Below are positions 8,358 through 56,730 of a DNA stretch of 64,000 bases, piece by piece. The position numbers were made by a program, and so were the translations under genes. The notes under the pieces are model-generated. The model was not told the origin of the DNA. It saw only the letters and a list, made by a program, of their open reading frames with translations, and made no database searches. Position 1 is the stretch's first letter. Each line of letters opens with the position of its first letter. The stretch is from a virus (Duplodnaviria > Heunggongvirae > Uroviricota > Caudoviricetes): the IMG/VR virus record IMGVR_UViG_3300021388_000002. One strand, given 5' to 3'.

Positions 8358-8564
8358 ATGGCGCGCATCCCGGCCCGGCCGATCTGCGGCCACCCGGTGA
8401 AGTACTACGAGATCGCGTCCCGGCCGCTGCGCGAGGACACCGAGCCGGTCTGCCACCGGCCGCCGCACGAGGGAGACCGGCACATGAGCCAGGCCTCGTA
8501 CGAGAACGAGCTGGAGCGCAGCCGCGCCAACCGCTGGCGCTATGCCCGCGGGGGCCGCTCATGA
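8358..8564 (+). CDS. small hypothetical protein
   Basis: TAGATG coupling. Confidence 0.4.
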   Translation: MARIPARPICGHPVKYYEIASRPLREDTEPVCHRPPHEGDRHMSQASYENELERSRANRWRYARGGRS

Positions 8565-8794
8565 GCGGGGCACTGGCGCGGGAGCAGCGGCGCAGGCTCA
8601 CCACTCATGTCACCCAGGCACTGGCGGTGCTCATGGTAATCGCCACGCTCATCTCCCTGGCCACCGGGAGCAGCCCGTTCCGGGTATTCGCGTGGGTGGG
8701 CGGCGGCGGGGCAGCGGGCTGGGCGGCGGTCTGGGCCGCGGGCAGACGGCAGCGGGCGGAAATGTCAGACCCCGGTGATAGGCCTGAGTCATGA
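8561..8794 (+). CDS. small membrane protein
   Basis: hydrophobic segment LAVLMVIATLISLATG; ATGA coupling. Confidence 0.4.
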   Translation: MSGALAREQRRRLTTHVTQALAVLMVIATLISLATGSSPFRVFAWVGGGGAAGWAAVWAAGRRQRAEMSDPGDRPES

Positions 8795-11652
8795 CCGTAG
8801 ACATGAGCCCCGACCAGTTCATGCAGGCCGTGCCGACCCTGCCAAACGGGAACACGGCCTGGGCCCAGCGTTATGGCACCGAGCTGCGCGAGATCATCGT
8901 GCGCCAGGCCCACCGCCAGCCCCGGTCGGTGCAGCGGCACCTCGGGCCCTCCGAGCTGGGCCACGAATGCCTGAGCGGAGACACCGAAGTAGTAACCCGC
9001 ACCGGGCTCCGGCGGATTGCGGATCTTGCAGCCGAAGGGTCCGCAGAACTCCTGGTCCCGATGCTTTACAGCGGTAGCGACGTCCGGAAACGCTGGGGAA
9101 AATTCCAGCGCGTGCCAGTCACCTGTTTCGGCGAGCGTGAGCTGTTCAAAGTAACCCTGCGCCGGGGCCTGGACGTAAAGATCGTCCATACAACGGCCGG
9201 GCACGCCTGGTTCAGGTCGTACTGGTCGGGGAAACGCAGAAAACAGGAACGCCTGACAACAACAGCCCTGAAGCCAGGTCACAAACTCACCCAGCTCCGG
9301 CGGGCAATGTCTACCACAGCCACGCTGATGCCGGTTGCTGTTGCCCAGGGCTTCACGTTCGGTGACGGCACGAAAGGCAGCGATGACGGTAAGTACCGAG
9401 CGGCGGTACTGAACCTCTACCACAACGGCAAAGACGAGGCGCTGCTGCCGTTCTTTCCCGGTGAGCACGACCAGTACACAGACCCGCGCTGCGCTTACAC
9501 GTGCACATACATCCGGAACTTGCCCCGGTTCTGGAAAGAGCTACCCCCAGCCAGTGAATCGTGTGGGTTCCTCCTGAGCTGGCTGGCTGGTTACTTTGCG
9601 GCTGATGGCTGCGTCACGGAAGACGGGCACTGCACGATTTCCTCTGCAAATCGGGAACATCTGGAGTTCGTCCGGGGTATCGCGGCCATCTGCGGTATCG
9701 GTTACGGGCAGATCCAGTGTCATATGCGCCGGGGCATAACCGGGAAACAGCTTCAGCCGGAAGCGACAGCGCTATACAAGCTCAGCCTCCGGCGGCGGGA
9801 CTTTCCGGCGTGGTTCTTCCTCATCGAGGAGCACCTACGACGCGTGAAAGCAGCAAACCAGACTGCGGAGCACGATCCGCACTGGGTCGTGGTTTCCATA
9901 GAGCCAACAGGGCGAACCGAACCCGTGTACTGCGCCACCGTCGATGGCATCGGGGCCTTTGCCCTGGCGGATGACCTGATGACAGGCAACTGTGACCGGC
10001 TCATTGTCGGCAAGCTGGCGGGTGAGGCGGTTACCAACCATGTGGTAAGCCCGTGGCCCTCCGTGGTCGGCACGGCGGTGCACGCCTGGCTGGCGGACAA
10101 GTTCGCGCTGGAGAACACCCTGACCGGCACGCTGCGCTGGGTGCCGGAGCAGAAGGTCAGCCCGCACCCGTCCTACCCGGGTACCGCCGACCTCTATGAT
10201 GCCGCTGAGCAGGCAGTGTGCGACTGGAAGATCCTGGCTGAATCCTCCATGCGGAAGGTCAAGTCGCCGTCCGGGCCGCCGCGGCACTACCAGGTCCAGC
10301 TGCTGCTGTACGCGCTCGGCTACCGCAAGCTCGGCCTGCCCGTACGCCGGGTCGCCCTGGTCGCGCTGCCCCGCACCGCGGCCACCCTGGACGGCATGTA
10401 CGTCTGGGCACACGACTGCAGCCCGGCCGATGACGAGCTGCTGAACCAGGTGCTGGCCATCACCGAGACCCGCCGCCAGGTCGCGCAGGAGATCCTGGCC
10501 GGGCGGCTGGACATCCGCCAGGTCCCGATTACCCCAGGACCGGACATTTGTTACTTCTGCTTCGCAGGGGAAACAGAGGTCGTCACCCGGGACGGGATCA
10601 GGCCTATCGCGGAGCTGGCCGGGACCACGCCCGAGCTGCTGGTGCCCCGGCAGGGCAAGAACCCGGGTCTGCAGGCTCAGGGCGACTTCGTCCGGGCACC
10701 GGTCCGGATGCTCGGCACCCAGCGGCTGTGGAAGATCGAGCTGGGCAGCCGCCGGGCGGTCAAGACCGTCTACGCCACCGCGGAGCACCGCTGGCTGCTG
10801 ACCGCCCGCGAAAGCCGGGCCAACCCCGGCAACAAGCACGGGCATCTCATCCAGGGCAGGCAGCGGCCCAGCAGCCAGTTCGAGCGCACGACCCAGCAGC
10901 TCCAGCCGGGTGACCGGCTCCGGTCGCTGCGGGCCATGCGCGCGGCGCTGCCCATGATGCCGTGGGCGGTCGCGCAGGGCTTCGTCTTCGGCGACGGCAC
11001 CCGTGGCCAGGGCAGCCGCCCGGCCTCACTGAAGATCTACGACAACGGCAAGGACGAGGCCCTGCTGCCGTTCTTCCCGTTCACCGAGCCGAATCAGCAC
11101 GCGGATGGCAAGCACATCACCGGCCTGCCCCGGTTCTGGAAAGATCTCCCGCCGATCCGGGAGTCCCGGACCTTCCTGCTGAGCTGGCTGGCCGGGTACT
11201 TCGCAGCCGATGGCAACGTCACCGAGGCAGGCCAGTGCGTACTGGACTCGGCGGACGAGCAGGCCATCCGGTTTGCCCGGGATGTCGCAGCTGTCTGCGG
11301 TGTGGGATACAGCCCCATCCGCAGCAAGTGGCGGCTGGGCCGCGGGCAGGAACCCACCGAGCTGTGGTCGATCGGCCTGCGCCGGCGGGATCTCCCTGAC
11401 TGGTTTTTCCTGATCAAGGAACACGCCATCCGGGCCGCGCGGGCCAATGATGACGACGCACGCGGTACCTACTGGACGGTTAAATCTGTGCAGGTCACAG
11501 ACCGGATCGAACCGGTGTACTGCGCCACGGTTGACGGTGCGGAGATGTTCGGCCTGGCCGATGATCTTCTCACCGGCAACTGTCCGTTTTATAGGCCTCA
11601 ATCGGCCACGGACGGCGGGCCAGGCTGCCCCGGGCATAGCCTGCCCGGCTGA
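8791..11652 (+). CDS. Cas4-like PD-(D/E)XK exonuclease (RecB-family, Fe-S Cys cluster) interrupted by two inteins
   Basis: Extein pieces: ...ELGHE|C..DLYD..CDWK..QLLLYALGY..DICYF|CPFYRPQ..GC (Cys1 + CxxxC..C); two insertions starting CLSGDTEVV / CFAGETEVV and ending ...TGN before Cys. Confidence 0.75.
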   Translation: MTVDMSPDQFMQAVPTLPNGNTAWAQRYGTELREIIVRQAHRQPRSVQRHLGPSELGHECLSGDTEVVTRTGLRRIADLAAEGSAELLVPMLYSGSDVRKRWGKFQRVPVTCFGERELFKVTLRRGLDVKIVHTTAGHAWFRSYWSGKRRKQERLTTTALKPGHKLTQLRRAMSTTATLMPVAVAQGFTFGDGTKGSDDGKYRAAVLNLYHNGKDEALLPFFPGEHDQYTDPRCAYTCTYIRNLPRFWKELPPASESCGFLLSWLAGYFAADGCVTEDGHCTISSANREHLEFVRGIAAICGIGYGQIQCHMRRGITGKQLQPEATALYKLSLRRRDFPAWFFLIEEHLRRVKAANQTAEHDPHWVVVSIEPTGRTEPVYCATVDGIGAFALADDLMTGNCDRLIVGKLAGEAVTNHVVSPWPSVVGTAVHAWLADKFALENTLTGTLRWVPEQKVSPHPSYPGTADLYDAAEQAVCDWKILAESSMRKVKSPSGPPRHYQVQLLLYALGYRKLGLPVRRVALVALPRTAATLDGMYVWAHDCSPADDELLNQVLAITETRRQVAQEILAGRLDIRQVPITPGPDICYFCFAGETEVVTRDGIRPIAELAGTTPELLVPRQGKNPGLQAQGDFVRAPVRMLGTQRLWKIELGSRRAVKTVYATAEHRWLLTARESRANPGNKHGHLIQGRQRPSSQFERTTQQLQPGDRLRSLRAMRAALPMMPWAVAQGFVFGDGTRGQGSRPASLKIYDNGKDEALLPFFPFTEPNQHADGKHITGLPRFWKDLPPIRESRTFLLSWLAGYFAADGNVTEAGQCVLDSADEQAIRFARDVAAVCGVGYSPIRSKWRLGRGQEPTELWSIGLRRRDLPDWFFLIKEHAIRAARANDDDARGTYWTVKSVQVTDRIEPVYCATVDGAEMFGLADDLLTGNCPFYRPQSATDGGPGCPGHSLPG
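8968..9990 (+). mobile_element. intein 1 (341 aa) with LAGLIDADG-like homing endonuclease remnant (LLSWLAGYFAADG)
   Basis: Cys1 after extein Glu; block-A-like CLSGDTEVVTRTG; C-terminal ...DDLMTGN followed by +1 Cys; in frame. Confidence 0.7.
10558..11580 (+). mobile_element. intein 2 (341 aa), paralogue of intein 1 (about half the residues identical by eye)
   Basis: CFAGETEVVTRDG...LLSWLAGYFAADG...DDLLTGN|C; identical length to intein 1. Confidence 0.7.
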
Positions 11653-11787: not shown

Positions 11788-12915
11788 ATGACCTACCCAA
11801 ACCAGCCGCAGGGCTACTACCCCCCGGCCCAGCCCCAGCACCCGGCCCAGCCCGGCCCGTACGCCCAGCCGCAGCCCGGACCCGGCTACCCGCCGGCCCC
11901 GCCGCAGCCCGGCCCGTACGGCCAGCCGCAGCCCGGTTACTACCCGGCCCAGCCCCAGCAGCAGTACACCGCACCGCAGCCCCCGCCGCCCGTCCACGCC
12001 ACTGTGGATGACTACTTCAACCAGCCGGCGGGCGGCAGCGGCAAGTCCCTGTCCAGTTTCTTCGTCACCCCGGGCCAGTCCATCGCCGGCATCGTCGCCC
12101 GTCCCATCACAGGCGCCGACATCCAGCAGCAGACGTCCCAGGGCGACAACCGGCCGCTGTTCCACAAGGACAACCGGCCCAAGCTCGTCATGATCGTCCC
12201 GCTGGAGACCCAGCCGTCCCAGATGTTCCCGGACGGCCGGGTCGCCTGGTACGTCAAGGGCCAGGCCCAGCAGGAGCTGGCCCGGGCCATGGCCGAGGCA
12301 GGTGCCCCGGCTGGCGCGCCCGAGGCGGGAGCCCAGATCACCATCACCTTCACCGGGACCCGTGAGGTCGGCGGCGGGCGCAACCCGCAGAAGCTGTACG
12401 CGGTGATCTACCGCCGCCCGGCCCAGGCCGGCCAGTTCGCTGACCAGCAGCAGGCTCCCGCTCCGGCTCAGGCGCAGTACCAGGCCCCGGCCCAGGTGCA
12501 GTACCAGGCGCAGCCGCAGTATCAGGCCCCGCAGCCCGCCATGGCCCAGCCGCAGTACCAGGCACCGGCCCAGCCGCAGAACCAGCAGCTGCCCGGCCAG
12601 CCAGCTCAGCCCGCATTTGAGGGGCAGGGCTACGGCCAGGGATTCGGGGTCCAGCCCCCGGCTCAGCCACCGGCCCAGCCGCAGCAGCCGTACGGCATGG
12701 CCAGCCCCGGGCAGCAGGTCCAGCAGGCCGCGGACGCGGCTACGGCGGCGGCGCAGAACGCCATGGCCCAGCAGGGCCCGGCATCGCAGGCGCCGCAGCA
12801 GGTCCCCCAGGGCCAGCCGCTCGCCGCGCTGCCGAACGTCAGCGCGGGTAACCAGGAACTGCTGAGCAAGCTGCTCGGCCAGGCTGGTGCCCCGGCCCCG
12901 GCGCAGGCCCAGTAA
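11788..12915 (+). CDS. Pro/Gln-rich low-complexity protein with central globular domain
   Basis: N- and C-terminal PQPG/QAPAQ repeats; GGAACAGG SD. Confidence 0.5.
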   Translation: MTYPNQPQGYYPPAQPQHPAQPGPYAQPQPGPGYPPAPPQPGPYGQPQPGYYPAQPQQQYTAPQPPPPVHATVDDYFNQPAGGSGKSLSSFFVTPGQSIAGIVARPITGADIQQQTSQGDNRPLFHKDNRPKLVMIVPLETQPSQMFPDGRVAWYVKGQAQQELARAMAEAGAPAGAPEAGAQITITFTGTREVGGGRNPQKLYAVIYRRPAQAGQFADQQQAPAPAQAQYQAPAQVQYQAQPQYQAPQPAMAQPQYQAPAQPQNQQLPGQPAQPAFEGQGYGQGFGVQPPAQPPAQPQQPYGMASPGQQVQQAADAATAAAQNAMAQQGPASQAPQQVPQGQPLAALPNVSAGNQELLSKLLGQAGAPAPAQAQ

Positions 12916-39041: not shown

Positions 39042-40451
39042 CTAGCGCGGTGCCGTGGCCGCCATCATCGCGACCGTGGGCAGGCTGGACCCGTGCGCCA
39101 GGGGCGCTGCCGGGAGGGTGACCGGCTCGGCCGTGGCCGGTGCCAGGCTGTCCAGCTCGGCCGGCACGGTGCCCGGCTTGAACTGGGCCAGCACGTCCTC
39201 GCCCGTGACCGCGCCGCTGGCGACGGCAGCGCTCATCCGGGCGGCGTGCACCACGACCAGCGGGTGCTTGCCGATCAGGACCGGCGGGCTGGCGTTCTCA
39301 GCCATCGGGTCGCAGCTGCTGCCCGGGGTGGCTGGGCAGTCCGGGCAGGGCGCTGCCAGCAGCGTGCCGGTCAGCTCTGCCCGCTCGGCCGCGTCCTGCT
39401 CCTGCTCCGTCCCGGTGGTGAACTGGCCGTGCCGCGGGCGCTGGCGGATGCCGTTCCGCTTGCGCGGGCGCTGCGGGATGGGCTCCGCGGCCGGCAGCGC
39501 TGGCGGTGCCGCGTCCGTCTCGCCCGGCAGCCGCAGGCCACCCGTGGACGCCTGGTCATCGGCGCGCAGCCGCACCGTAGCCGAGGTCACCCAGATGGGC
39601 GGCGCGTCCGGCAGCGGCTCGCCGGTCTCCGGGTCGGTGTCCGGCTGGTGCCACCCGATCGGCTCGATGGTGTACGCGAACGAGTCCGGCAGCGGCCCGC
39701 ACTTGACCTTCTCCGCGATCACCGTGGCCGACCGGCTGCCGTCCGTGCTCTCCAGGTCTGGCTCGATCCCGAACACGAAGTCCGAGGAAGCGAACAGCCG
39801 GGAGCCGGGCAGGCGCTGCGGCTCGTTGCCGCGCCCGCCGTTCGGGTGCGCGATCGCGATTACCAGGCAGTCCAGCTGGGCCGACAGCCACTTCATCCCG
39901 AGCATGAACCGGTTGGCGCTGGTGTCGTTAGCCAGCGACAGGCCGCCGAAGTCCGCCGCGCTGTCCAGGATGACCAGCTCCAGGTCCGGCAGCTGGCCCA
40001 TCTCGGTCGCCGCCCGGCGCAGCGCCCGCGTCGGCTCCATCTGCGGGCTGACCGGCACCGCGAACGCCTCCGTCATGAACTTCAGCCGCACGTCGGTGTA
40101 GGGCGGCTGGGCCGCCAGCCACGCATCGGCCGCCGCCTGGCCGTCCCGGCGGGCGATCTCGGCCGCCCGCGCCATCCGGTCATGCTGCTCGCGGATCAGC
40201 CGGGCCTGCTTGCGGACTCCCGCGTCGTACAGGCCCTCACCGAGGCAGTACGCGACCATGCCCCGGATGGTCGCCCGGCCGAGGAACGGGGTGCCGTTGG
40301 CGACCGCCAGGCCCAGTTCCTGGCCGATCACCAGGGACTTGCCGTAGTACGACGGCCCGTAGACGAACCCCACGCCCACCCGGGGGAACAGCCCCTCGAC
40401 CAGGAAGTCCGGCGGGGTGATGTCCAGGTCGTCAGCGTTGATCAGAGGCAT
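39042..40451 (-). CDS. AAA_25-type RecA-like ATPase (RepA/DnaB-like fold)
   Basis: GFVYGPSYYGKS Walker A; VILDSAADF Walker B-like. Confidence 0.65.
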   Translation of the reverse strand: MPLINADDLDITPPDFLVEGLFPRVGVGFVYGPSYYGKSLVIGQELGLAVANGTPFLGRATIRGMVAYCLGEGLYDAGVRKQARLIREQHDRMARAAEIARRDGQAAADAWLAAQPPYTDVRLKFMTEAFAVPVSPQMEPTRALRRAATEMGQLPDLELVILDSAADFGGLSLANDTSANRFMLGMKWLSAQLDCLVIAIAHPNGGRGNEPQRLPGSRLFASSDFVFGIEPDLESTDGSRSATVIAEKVKCGPLPDSFAYTIEPIGWHQPDTDPETGEPLPDAPPIWVTSATVRLRADDQASTGGLRLPGETDAAPPALPAAEPIPQRPRKRNGIRQRPRHGQFTTGTEQEQDAAERAELTGTLLAAPCPDCPATPGSSCDPMAENASPPVLIGKHPLVVVHAARMSAAVASGAVTGEDVLAQFKPGTVPAELDSLAPATAEPVTLPAAPLAHGSSLPTVAMMAATAPR

Positions 40452-40584
40452 GTCCTGTCTCCTGTTCTGTGAAATCGTGCGGCGGGGTCCGTGCGTACAC
40501 GATGACCGCCGCGAGTGCGGTGCCGAACGCGCCCGCGCCCAGCAGGGCGCAGCCCGCGATGAGCAGGGCGTGGATCACGCGCGC

Positions 40585-56212: not shown

Positions 56213-56522
56213 ACCTGGTGAGCCGTGCCGTGCCCGTGGCCACCTGGTGAGCCGTGCCCGTGGCCACCTGGTGAGCCGTGCCCGTGGCCACCTGGTGAGC
56301 CGTGCCCGTGGCCACCTGGTGAGCCGTGCCCGTGGTCGCCCGGCTGGCCGTGCCCGTGGTCGCCCGGCTGGCCGTGGCCGTGGTCGCCCGGCTGGCCGTG
56401 GCCGTGGTCGCCCGGCTGGCCGTGGCCGTGCCCGGTATGCGGGAACACACGCGGCGTGCCCGTGGTTGTCACCTGGTGAGCCGCGCTCGGTGGCTACCTG
56501 GTCAGCCGGCCGCCTGGTGAGC
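56213..56522. repeat. tandem 24-bp repeat array (ACCTGGTGAGCCGTGCCCGTGGCC x5 then TCGCCCGGCTGGCCGTGGCCGTGG x4, degenerate copies to 56522)
   Basis: direct tandem copies read from sequence; all six frames open (His/Gly- or Pro-rich translations). Confidence 0.7.
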
Positions 56523-56527
56523 ATGGG

Positions 56528-56730
56528 TCGTTAGCAAGGGCAACTGTTAGCCGTGCTAAGGATTGTCGTTAGCAAGGGCAACTGTTAGCCGCGCTAAGGA
56601 CTGTCGTTAGCAAGGGCAACGGTTAGCCGGGCTAAGGATTGTCGTTAGCAAGGGCAACGGTTAGCCGGGCTAAGGATTGTCGTTAGCAAGGGCAACGGTT
56701 AGCCGGGCTAAGGATTGTCGTTAGCAAGAC
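56528..56730. repeat. tandem 38-bp iteron-like array x5.3 (TCGTTAGCAAGGGCAACGGTTAGCCGGGCTAAGGATTG), each with internal palindrome TTAGCCGGGCTAA
   Basis: unit starts at 56528, 56566, 56604, 56642, 56680, 56718. Confidence 0.75.

Follow-up and report, generated by a model that had tools for sequence, protein, structure and literature searches.

Two related predicted inteins interrupt a Cas4-like nuclease gene of a phage-like element directly before predicted iron-sulfur ligand cysteines

Organization of the interrupted gene

The window analyzed here is a stretch of 64,000 nucleotides (nt) from the IMG/VR virus record IMGVR_UViG_3300021388_000002. It contains a 953-codon gene for a Cas4-like nuclease, which is interrupted by two insertions of 341 amino acids (aa) each, both predicted to be inteins. 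The gene, its parts and other features of the window were collected in Table 1. The borders and the end motifs of both insertions had already been given in an initial annotation, made from the letters of the sequence, and were found to be exact. Intein 1 was located at site a, between E59 and C60 of the extein (GPSELGHE/CDRLIVGK, the slash marking the junction), and intein 2 at site c, between F248 and C249 (DICYF/CPFYRPQ). The residue directly after each intein, Cys60 or Cys249, was an invariant cysteine.

The start codon of the gene (ATG) overlapped the stop codon of the upstream open reading frame (ORF) 8561..8794 by 4 nt. A search with the whole precursor retrieved an identical protein (P0001) on the metagenome contig ERZ27313870 k141_439006 of 164.5 kb. 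No third copy was detected in the window by tblastn with both inteins and the extein pieces, and the DNA of the whole gene had no match in 50,697 phage records.

Table 1. Features of the interrupted nuclease gene and of other parts of the window (GC3, GC content at third codon positions)
Feature	Position	Strand	Remarks
Precursor gene, Cas4-like nuclease with two predicted inteins	8791..11652	+	953 codons and stop (ORF list, translation)
N-extein, aa 1-59	8791..8967	+	C-terminus GPSELGHE; aligns with residues 1-59 of intein-free homologues; GC3 0.92
Intein 1 (site a), 341 aa, precursor aa 60-400	8968..9990	+	CLSGDTEVVTR...ADDLMTGN, then Cys
Intein 1, block A	8968-9000	+	CLSGDTEVVTR
Intein 1, block B	9193-9210	+	TAGHAW
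Intein 1, LAGLIDADG motifs	9337-9369 and 9571-9609	+	
Intein 1, blocks F/G	9919-9990	+	EPVYCATVDG...DDLMTGN
Middle extein, precursor aa 401-589 (extein 60-248)	9991..10557	+	invariant columns in homologue alignment
Cys60, +1 residue of intein 1	9991-9993	+	
D126	10189-10191	+	
D137 and K139	10222-10230	+	
Q162...Y166	10297-10311	+	
C246	10549-10551	+	
Intein 2 (site c), 341 aa, precursor aa 590-930	10558..11580	+	CFAGETEVVTR...ADDLLTGN, then Cys
Intein 2, block A	10558-10590	+	CFAGETEVVTR
Intein 2, block B	10777-10794	+	TAEHRW
Intein 2, LAGLIDADG motifs	10966-10998 and 11176-11214	+	
Intein 2, blocks F/G	11509-11580	+	EPVYCATVDG...DDLLTGN
C-extein, precursor aa 931-953 and stop	11581..11652	+	invariant C249 and C264; motif CPFYRPQ...GPGCPG
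Cys249, +1 residue of intein 2	11581-11583	+	
Cys264	11626-11628	+	
375-aa protein, long Pro/Gln-rich repeats at both ends	11788-12915	+	directly downstream of the nuclease gene
Prim-Pol, DUF5906 and family A DNA polymerase protein, 1,951 aa	18008-23863	+	
tRNA-Gly(GCC), 93 nt	39163-39255	-	ARAGORN; inside 510-aa AAA_25 ORF 39045-40574 (-)
24-bp repeat, 8.5 copies	56227-56430		adjoins the 38-bp array
38-bp repeat GTCGTTAGCAAGGGCAACGGTTAGCCGGGCTAAGGATT, 5.3 copies	56527-56728		96% matches

The host protein as a Cas4-like nuclease

Removal of both insertions joined the flanks into a protein of 271 aa. The spliced extein matched PHROG 1674 "exonuclease" in one uninterrupted stretch (1.3e-55) and Pfam PDDEXK_1 with 24.4 bits (cut-off 22); NCBIfam returned no family, and no Cas4 model in Pfam matched the extein at E ≤ 1. 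By tblastn, 384 actinophage genes for exonucleases or Cas4-family exonucleases matched it as single pieces across both junctions at about 34% identity. The databases held 1,158 homologues at E ≤ 1e-10, and the best 120 of them were all 260-298 aa long, intein-free and at most 70% identical to the extein. Other contigs, 130-190 kb long, and genomes of Micromonospora and Haloactinopolyspora also encoded intein-free homologues.

The extein was aligned with 27 intein-free proteins of 260-298 aa (28 sequences altogether), and no gap was observed at E59/C60 or F248/C249. Exactly four cysteines were invariant in this alignment, C60, C246, C249 and C264, with the Cas4-type spacing C60...C246-x2-C249-x14-C264, namely C...CxxC...C. 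D126, D137, K139, Q162 and Y166 were invariant as well and correspond to RecB motifs II and III and QhxxY, while the conserved N-terminal motif was GPSELGxxC. The hallmarks listed in the initial annotation were therefore partly revised: DLYD, CDWK and QLLLY did hold invariant residues, ELGHE was conserved in part only, and the CxxxC cluster proposed there is actually C...CxxC...C. Its placement of one intein inside the C-terminal cysteine motif agreed with our alignment, in which intein 2 splits CxxC before C249; that intein 1 likewise precedes a predicted ligand (Cys60) had not been noticed there.

The fold search with the spliced extein retrieved lambda exonuclease, LHK-Exo, ACE1 and RecE (Foldseek), and the flanking pieces rebuilt a Cas4-like fold as had been anticipated. 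A single-sequence search of the PDB with the extein gave nothing, and a search with its profile gave nothing useful. Based on motifs, cysteine pattern and predicted fold, the host was assigned as a Cas4-like nuclease. The cysteine of GPSELGxxC (C60) occupies what we take to be the N-terminal cluster ligand position of Cas4 and AddB-type nucleases, and C60, C246, C249 and C264 are the predicted ligands of an iron-sulfur (Fe-S) cluster.

CRISPR-associated Cas4 (SSO0001, 4ic1; the Cas4-Cas1-Cas2 complexes 7mi4 and 8d3l) has RecB motifs II/III and QhxxY in common with the window nuclease and shows the same cysteine pattern, one N-terminal and three C-terminal. Unlike it, the window nuclease was assigned to PDDEXK_1, with no cas gene within 10 kb on either side and no CRISPR-like array in the window by tandem-repeat scan. 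The nuclease is Cas4-like but not a CRISPR component, and since its neighbours include replication and recombination-type genes, a role in phage recombination or end processing is more likely.

The two insertions as inteins with endonuclease domains

The two insertions shared 167 identities over 357 aligned positions (47%, E 9e-101, BLASTP), which agreed with the earlier estimate by eye that about half of their residues are identical. Their alignment required 32 gap positions and the length of the family ranged from 308 to 353 aa, which makes their identical size (341 aa) coincidental. Two LAGLIDADG motifs were identified in both: the first, AVAQGF(T/V)FGDG, had not been noticed before, and the second, LLSWLAGYFAADG, had been reported correctly for both insertions. 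The catalytic aspartates, D133 and D213, were present in both inteins and were kept in 97.5% and 98.4%, respectively, of 122 family members. Pfam LAGLIDADG_3 (PF14528) scored 26.2 bits for intein 1, above its cut-off of 22.5, and 19.3 bits for intein 2.

By tblastn, both insertions could be aligned over their whole length (about 25% identity) with inserts in ribonucleotide reductase genes of phages, including annotated NrdA inteins of Vibrio ICP1 phages and an insert in a Thermobifida phage P318 gene; the latter matched intein 2 from end to end with E 1e-13. A profile of 23 family members matched the DnaE intein 7qil over positions 2-85 (blocks A/B) and 307-332 (blocks F/G), with Cys322 opposite the F:4 Asp of 7qil, and also matched the LAGLIDADG region of PI-PfuI. 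The AlphaFold (AF2) model of intein 1 had a mean predicted local distance difference test score (pLDDT) of 90.1 and a predicted template modelling (TM) score (pTM) of 0.89. Its Foldseek matches were the TliVMA intein (E 2e-12), PI-PfuI (TM 0.68) and PI-SceI, followed by I-DmoI and mini-inteins, whereas a single-sequence PDB search with intein 1 returned only ankyrin-repeat noise. Judged by the aligned blocks and the model, both insertions are predicted inteins with LAGLIDADG homing endonuclease domains, as the initial annotation had supposed.

Splicing signature

Residues C1, T76 (B:7), H79 (B:10), W81 (B:12), C322 (F:4) and N341 were invariant in all 122 family members, T339 (G:5) was present in 98% of them, and the +1 residue was Cys in 120. 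The same pattern was found in 115 further complete representatives, in which C1, Thr B:7, His B:10, Trp B:12 and Cys F:4 each occurred in 115/115 and Thr G:5 in 110/115. Both window inteins carried Cys1, TxxH, Trp B:12, Cys F:4, Thr G:5, the terminal Asn and Cys+1. They thus combined features of two splicing classes, which the initial annotation had not mentioned. From class 1 they had Cys1, TxxH and the terminal Asn, with Cys instead of Asp at F:4 and Gly as the penultimate residue; from class 3 they had the Trp-Cys-Thr triplet, with an invariant Cys1 where an N-terminal nucleophile should be missing.

Class 3 inteins use the block F Cys for the attack on the N-terminal junction, residue 1 being no nucleophile (PMC2807308, PMC5222942, PMC7664689). 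The sequence signature suggests, on balance, that the block F Cys of the window family takes part in catalysis in the same way. Tori and Perler are said to have found in 2011 that two Trp-Cys-Thr inteins with an N-terminal nucleophile spliced by the class 3 route. The competing explanation, to which we attach a somewhat smaller though still substantial weight, is canonical class 1 splicing, in which Cys1 starts the reaction, Cys F:4 merely replaces Asp as a helper and the triplet is incidental. Such a route would agree with the invariance of Cys1 and the full retention of TxxH with Thr B:7, since typical class 3 inteins lack both Cys1 and the class 1 Thr B:7 (PMC2807308, PMC6195587), and with Cys+1 as the rule of the family, the +1 residue of class 3 inteins being nearly always Ser or Thr (PMC5222942). 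However, Trp B:12, Cys F:4 and Thr G:5 were as invariant as Cys1, and in a 2009 survey (Tori et al.) the triplet showed strong covariation with class 3 chemistry, Ser1 or Cys1 being present in only 3 of 37 triplet-bearing inteins (PMC2807308). Moreover, free-standing derivatives of the family, described below, have lost Cys F:4 jointly with the other splicing residues, which hints indirectly at a catalytic role of Cys F:4.

The published Trp-Cys-Thr inteins with Ser1 or Cys1 (the 3 of 37 of Tori et al.) resemble the window family in joining the triplet with an N-terminal nucleophile, and the Bvi IcmO intein shares its Cys+1. Compared by description only, they differ in that the combination is invariant across hundreds of clusters here, and in that the window family has, in addition, retained the class 1 Thr B:7 and mostly carries Gly at the penultimate position.

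Separate acquisition of the two inteins

For the census of inteins, the best 120 matches to the whole precursor were dissected and those with this extein were counted. Inteins were present at site a only in 24 alleles, at site c only in 39, at sites a and c in 4, at sites a and b in 4, at sites b and c in 4 and at site b only in 1, site b being a third insertion point described below. On a tree of 179 exteins, at least 22 changes were required for 25 carriers of site a and at least 27 for 38 carriers of site c. Intein presence was sporadic on this tree, and the closest extein (P0005) contained a site-c intein only. The GC3 of intein 1 was 0.71 versus 0.89-0.92 in the flanking extein, with steps at its borders from 0.97 to 0.63 on entry and from 0.73 to 1.0 on exit, while that of intein 2 was 0.87. 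In two other alleles examined, the site-a inteins were also below their own exteins in GC3. Of the two, intein 1 probably entered this lineage later. A low GC3 (about 0.70) was also observed over the last 40 codons of intein 2 together with the 23-codon C-extein (11509-11652), and this stretch may be a co-conversion tract from homing.

These data indicate two separate invasions of this gene and not a duplication within it. The initial annotation had favoured intein duplication or recent ectopic homing, by which one intein was copied between the two sites within this lineage. The two inteins are clearly homologous, with 47% identity and the same domain order, length and block sequences, and on the neighbour-joining tree the clade of site-a inteins lies nested among those of site c and other family members, so some ancient site switch must have taken place within the family. 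As shown above, however, the equal length is coincidental, and the inteins were 58% identical in DNA with third positions agreeing at 48% of identical residues; silent sites between them were saturated. Each intein was closer to same-site inteins of other alleles (58-79% identity for intein 1, up to 76% for intein 2) than to its partner at about 47%; the closer same-site relatives of the two were 66-79% identical. The neighbour-joining tree, built from 122 inteins, placed the 30 inteins of site a together in one clade with a bootstrap of 100 and split the site-c inteins among several clades. Intein 2 grouped with the site-c intein of P0002, and those of P0003 and P0004 fell in two other clades, so the combination of a and c was assembled at least three times; alleles with a single intein at a or c numbered 63 against 4 with both. 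Ectopic homing by way of DNA likeness between the targets was rejected, because the two sites shared 12 of 48 nt, which is the random level. A copying event within this gene is thus very improbable. To an assembly chimera, in which strains with an intein at site a only and at site c only were stitched together during metagenome assembly, we give hardly any weight at all. Single-intein alleles are common, and P0001 comes from a single metagenome assembly and is present on one contig only, but three more proteins with inteins at a and c (P0002-P0004) were obtained from other samples and sources, and related alleles differed by at least 24% in DNA over the 567-bp middle extein, too much for merging by an assembler.

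Proposed working of the gene

Taken together, the locus is best explained, with a probability of roughly 0.85, as a 271-aa Cas4-like PD-(D/E)XK exonuclease that is predicted to bind a [4Fe-4S] cluster and is encoded by an uncultivated, high-GC, phage-like actinobacterial element. Its gene would have been entered at two sites, on separate occasions, by two members of a single large LAGLIDADG intein family that diverged from each other long ago. Several points weigh against this explanation. The curated intein profiles remained below their cut-offs, Pfam Intein_splicing PF14890 with 14.5-18 bits (cut-off 35.8) and TIGR01445 with 17.5 and 12.5 bits (cut-off 24.5); so divergent a family is beyond the reach of these models, and fold and block evidence carries the intein assignment. 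The penultimate residue is usually Gly in the family, not His, which may slow Asn cyclisation, although a penultimate Gly is tolerated in phage inteins (PMC5050341). Either Cys1 or Cys F:4 could initiate splicing as far as can be read from the sequence. The backbone of the intein tree was poorly supported, and rooting on two inteins of P0077 failed because these were not monophyletic; the family may plausibly have jumped into site a in ancient times, but the direction of such a jump cannot be oriented on so weak a backbone. No capsid, portal or terminase gene was recognised in the window by PHROG and Pfam scans of 20 neighbours. Finally, splicing of both inteins and Fe-S binding by the nuclease were deduced from sequences and models.

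In the proposed scheme, each intein would use a predicted cluster-ligand cysteine (C60 or C249) as its +1 splicing nucleophile. The 953-aa precursor would be inactive, with the N-terminal ligand cysteine and the CxxC each cut off from the remaining nuclease by an inserted domain of 341 aa. Because each of the two cysteines is separated from the fold in this way, the precursor should be unable to assemble the cluster, and nuclease activity should therefore need both splicing events. Each intein would then excise itself and ligate its flanks, after which the four cysteines could bind the cluster and the nuclease would become active. During co-infection, the endonuclease of each intein would presumably cleave an intein-free allele at the site of that intein, and repair would copy the intein in. 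Since sites a and c are unrelated in DNA, the two endonucleases would have to differ in specificity.

All of this presupposes functional inteins, and decayed insertions that no longer splice, leaving the nuclease gene a relic, would undo it. The penultimate Gly, the weak scores of the curated profiles and an element known from metagenome assembly only could be read in that way. Nevertheless, the frame of 953 codons was open in DNA of 70% GC, all catalytic splicing residues and both endonuclease aspartates were intact in both inteins, and the extein retained all invariant nuclease residues and cysteines. The signature was invariant across hundreds of clusters and the penultimate Gly was the norm of the family (86 of 115 copies). 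Decay of this kind is accordingly very doubtful compared with two working inteins.

A third insertion site and known systems

Site b, directly after D(W/H)K of RecB motif III, held an unrelated insertion of 317-330 aa in nine relatives (P0008, P0029, P0032, P0047, P0052, P0054, P0056, P0072 and P0084). The site-b intein starts with Gly1, carries PTRCIDV in block F and ends with VHN/C. It was 35-44% identical to the exonuclease/Cas4 inteins of Frankenweenie, Zeeculate and Dexes and to the LittleE terminase intein, and is the known class 3 actinophage Cas4 intein. The copy in P0084 had no obvious block B His. In the window, site b was empty (after K139, 10228-10230), and the +1 position there was Ile, not Cys.

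Kelley et al. (2016) described 40 copies of Cas4 inteins at a single site at the PD-(D/E)XK motif (PMC5050341), and a PhagesDB survey of 2025 counted 138 copies at motif III (bioRxiv 10.1101/2025.01.02.630785). These inteins of actinophage Cas4/RecB-like exonucleases share with the window inteins the type of host, the LAGLIDADG endonuclease, the block F Cys and insertion in an essential motif. They differ in occupying one site, at RecB motif III, and in lacking an N-terminal nucleophile, whereas the window inteins lie before Cys60 and inside CxxC and possess Cys1. The window inteins belong to a different family; no BLAST match at E ≤ 1e-3 was found between them and the site-b intein. No member of this family was present in the 50,697 phage records, where the best matches were about 25% identical and came from reductase genes.

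At site c, the precursor reads C246-Y-F-C1, which forms a CxxC across the junction. MoaA is an Fe-S enzyme, and the window host is predicted to be one. Under oxidising conditions, the MoaA intein of Pyrococcus abyssi is kept from splicing by a disulfide that links an N-extein Cys to Cys1 (PMC10663303). An N-extein Cys near Cys1 is what site c shares with this intein and with the "redox trap" engineered in DnaE (Callahan et al. 2011, cited after PMC10663303). Site a differs from the MoaA arrangement, with Cys at -3 in 0 of 30 copies. By analogy, redox control of splicing at site c might be proposed, purely as a hypothesis. In DnaB of M. smegmatis, which also contains two inteins (PMC6195587), both must splice to complete the protein, as here; the DnaB inteins are of different classes, while those of the window come from one family and both lie before predicted ligands of the same cluster.

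Inteins in phage Cas4-like nucleases and proteins with several inteins are thus already known. What is new are two insertion points in this nuclease family, both directly before invariant cysteines that are predicted Fe-S ligands. Alleles without an intein, with a single one at one or another of three sites, or with two provide a natural system for homing, site switching and loss. A large family in which both Cys1 and the class 3 triplet are invariant also makes the question of the starting nucleophile testable by two point mutants. Relatives of the precursor were labelled "hypothetical protein", "LAGLIDADG endonuclease" or "PAPS reductase" in public records, so annotation pipelines miss these inteins.

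The wider intein family

A profile search of 1.84 billion representatives matched 2,475 clusters at E ≤ 1e-3, 1,613 at E ≤ 1e-10 and 848 at E ≤ 1e-30. Cys at -3 was found in 47/47 site-c inteins and in 42/45 close relatives in other hosts, and these 42 were inserted between the third and fourth residues of CxxC. Most of the relatives in other hosts were located in PAPS-reductase-like proteins, with flanks KSACxF/CPF or RLSCVF/CVL, and one in a family A polymerase. In the closer subfamily, 89 of 92 copies outside site a lay in CxxC, and in the wider family Cys at -3 was present in only 40 of 124 copies; CxxC as the universal home of the family was rejected on this count. Other proteins with 2-5 matches to the window intein family also existed in the databases.

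Three free-standing derivatives were identified, in Streptomyces sp. NPDC126510 (L005), S. sasae (L006, 3001-4020) and an Urbifossiella metagenome-assembled genome (MAG; L007, 1042-2034). C1, Cys F:4, the terminal Asn and Cys+1 were all replaced in them, while both LAGLIDADG aspartates, W81 and T339 were retained. Each opens with its own start codon and terminates a few residues past the intein end, and by their sequences they look like inteins turned into stand-alone homing endonuclease genes. Similar-looking representatives of 325-366 aa were also found (P0249, P0255, P0273 and P0300).

A broader proposal is that a large unrecognised intein lineage, combining the class 1 and class 3 apparatus with Cys+1, prefers metal-ligand cysteines such as the CxxC of Cas4 and of PAPS-reductase-like proteins, a primase zinc finger and the CHHNY of RtcB. 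This is regarded as rather unlikely at present. In such a lineage, a disulfide with the extein Cys at -3 might hold the precursor until conditions for Fe-S assembly are reached.

Distant members, 31-39% identical and with the same signature (Cys1, TxxHxW, Cys F:4, T-x-N/C), were observed before the CHHNY Cys of RtcB and before CFGCGxGG of a primase-type zinc finger, both metal-site cysteines. They came from actinobacterial MAGs (L009, L014 and L016) and from Competibacter MAGs, an actinomycete MAG and Micromonospora (L010-L013), and some of their hosts were outside Actinomycetota. In P0288 (1812 aa), two family inteins abut at residues 42-349 and 350-662 (...GLVTGN/CFSGDT...), a third lies at 919-1224, and five stretches were matched by the profile search. 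Inteins occupy this one protein, which is of unknown type, in a tandem or nested arrangement.

Genomic context and other features of the window

The contig is a metagenome assembly with a GC content of 70%, and the neighbours of the nuclease gene were mostly small ORFs without families. Recognisable among them were an SNF2 helicase, a 1,951-aa fusion of primase-polymerase and family A polymerase, and endolysin-like, AAA_25 and HD-domain proteins. The PHROG and Pfam scans of 20 neighbours gave endolysin, peptidase, AAA_25, SPFH, HD-domain and helix-turn-helix (HTH) proteins. The element is only loosely phage-like, and the label "phage" is provisional. Against phages, the 1,951-aa protein matched actinophage polymerases at about 29% identity in its polymerase part only (tblastn).

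The centre of the 375-aa protein encoded next to the nuclease gene matched PHROG 1911 (unknown function, E 2.7e-9), and this protein might be the recombination partner of the nuclease. Its length and position make the call of tRNA-Gly(GCC) a probable false positive. The 38-bp array was far lower in GC than its surroundings, and the 38-bp and 24-bp repeats are possibly iterons or protein-binding sites.

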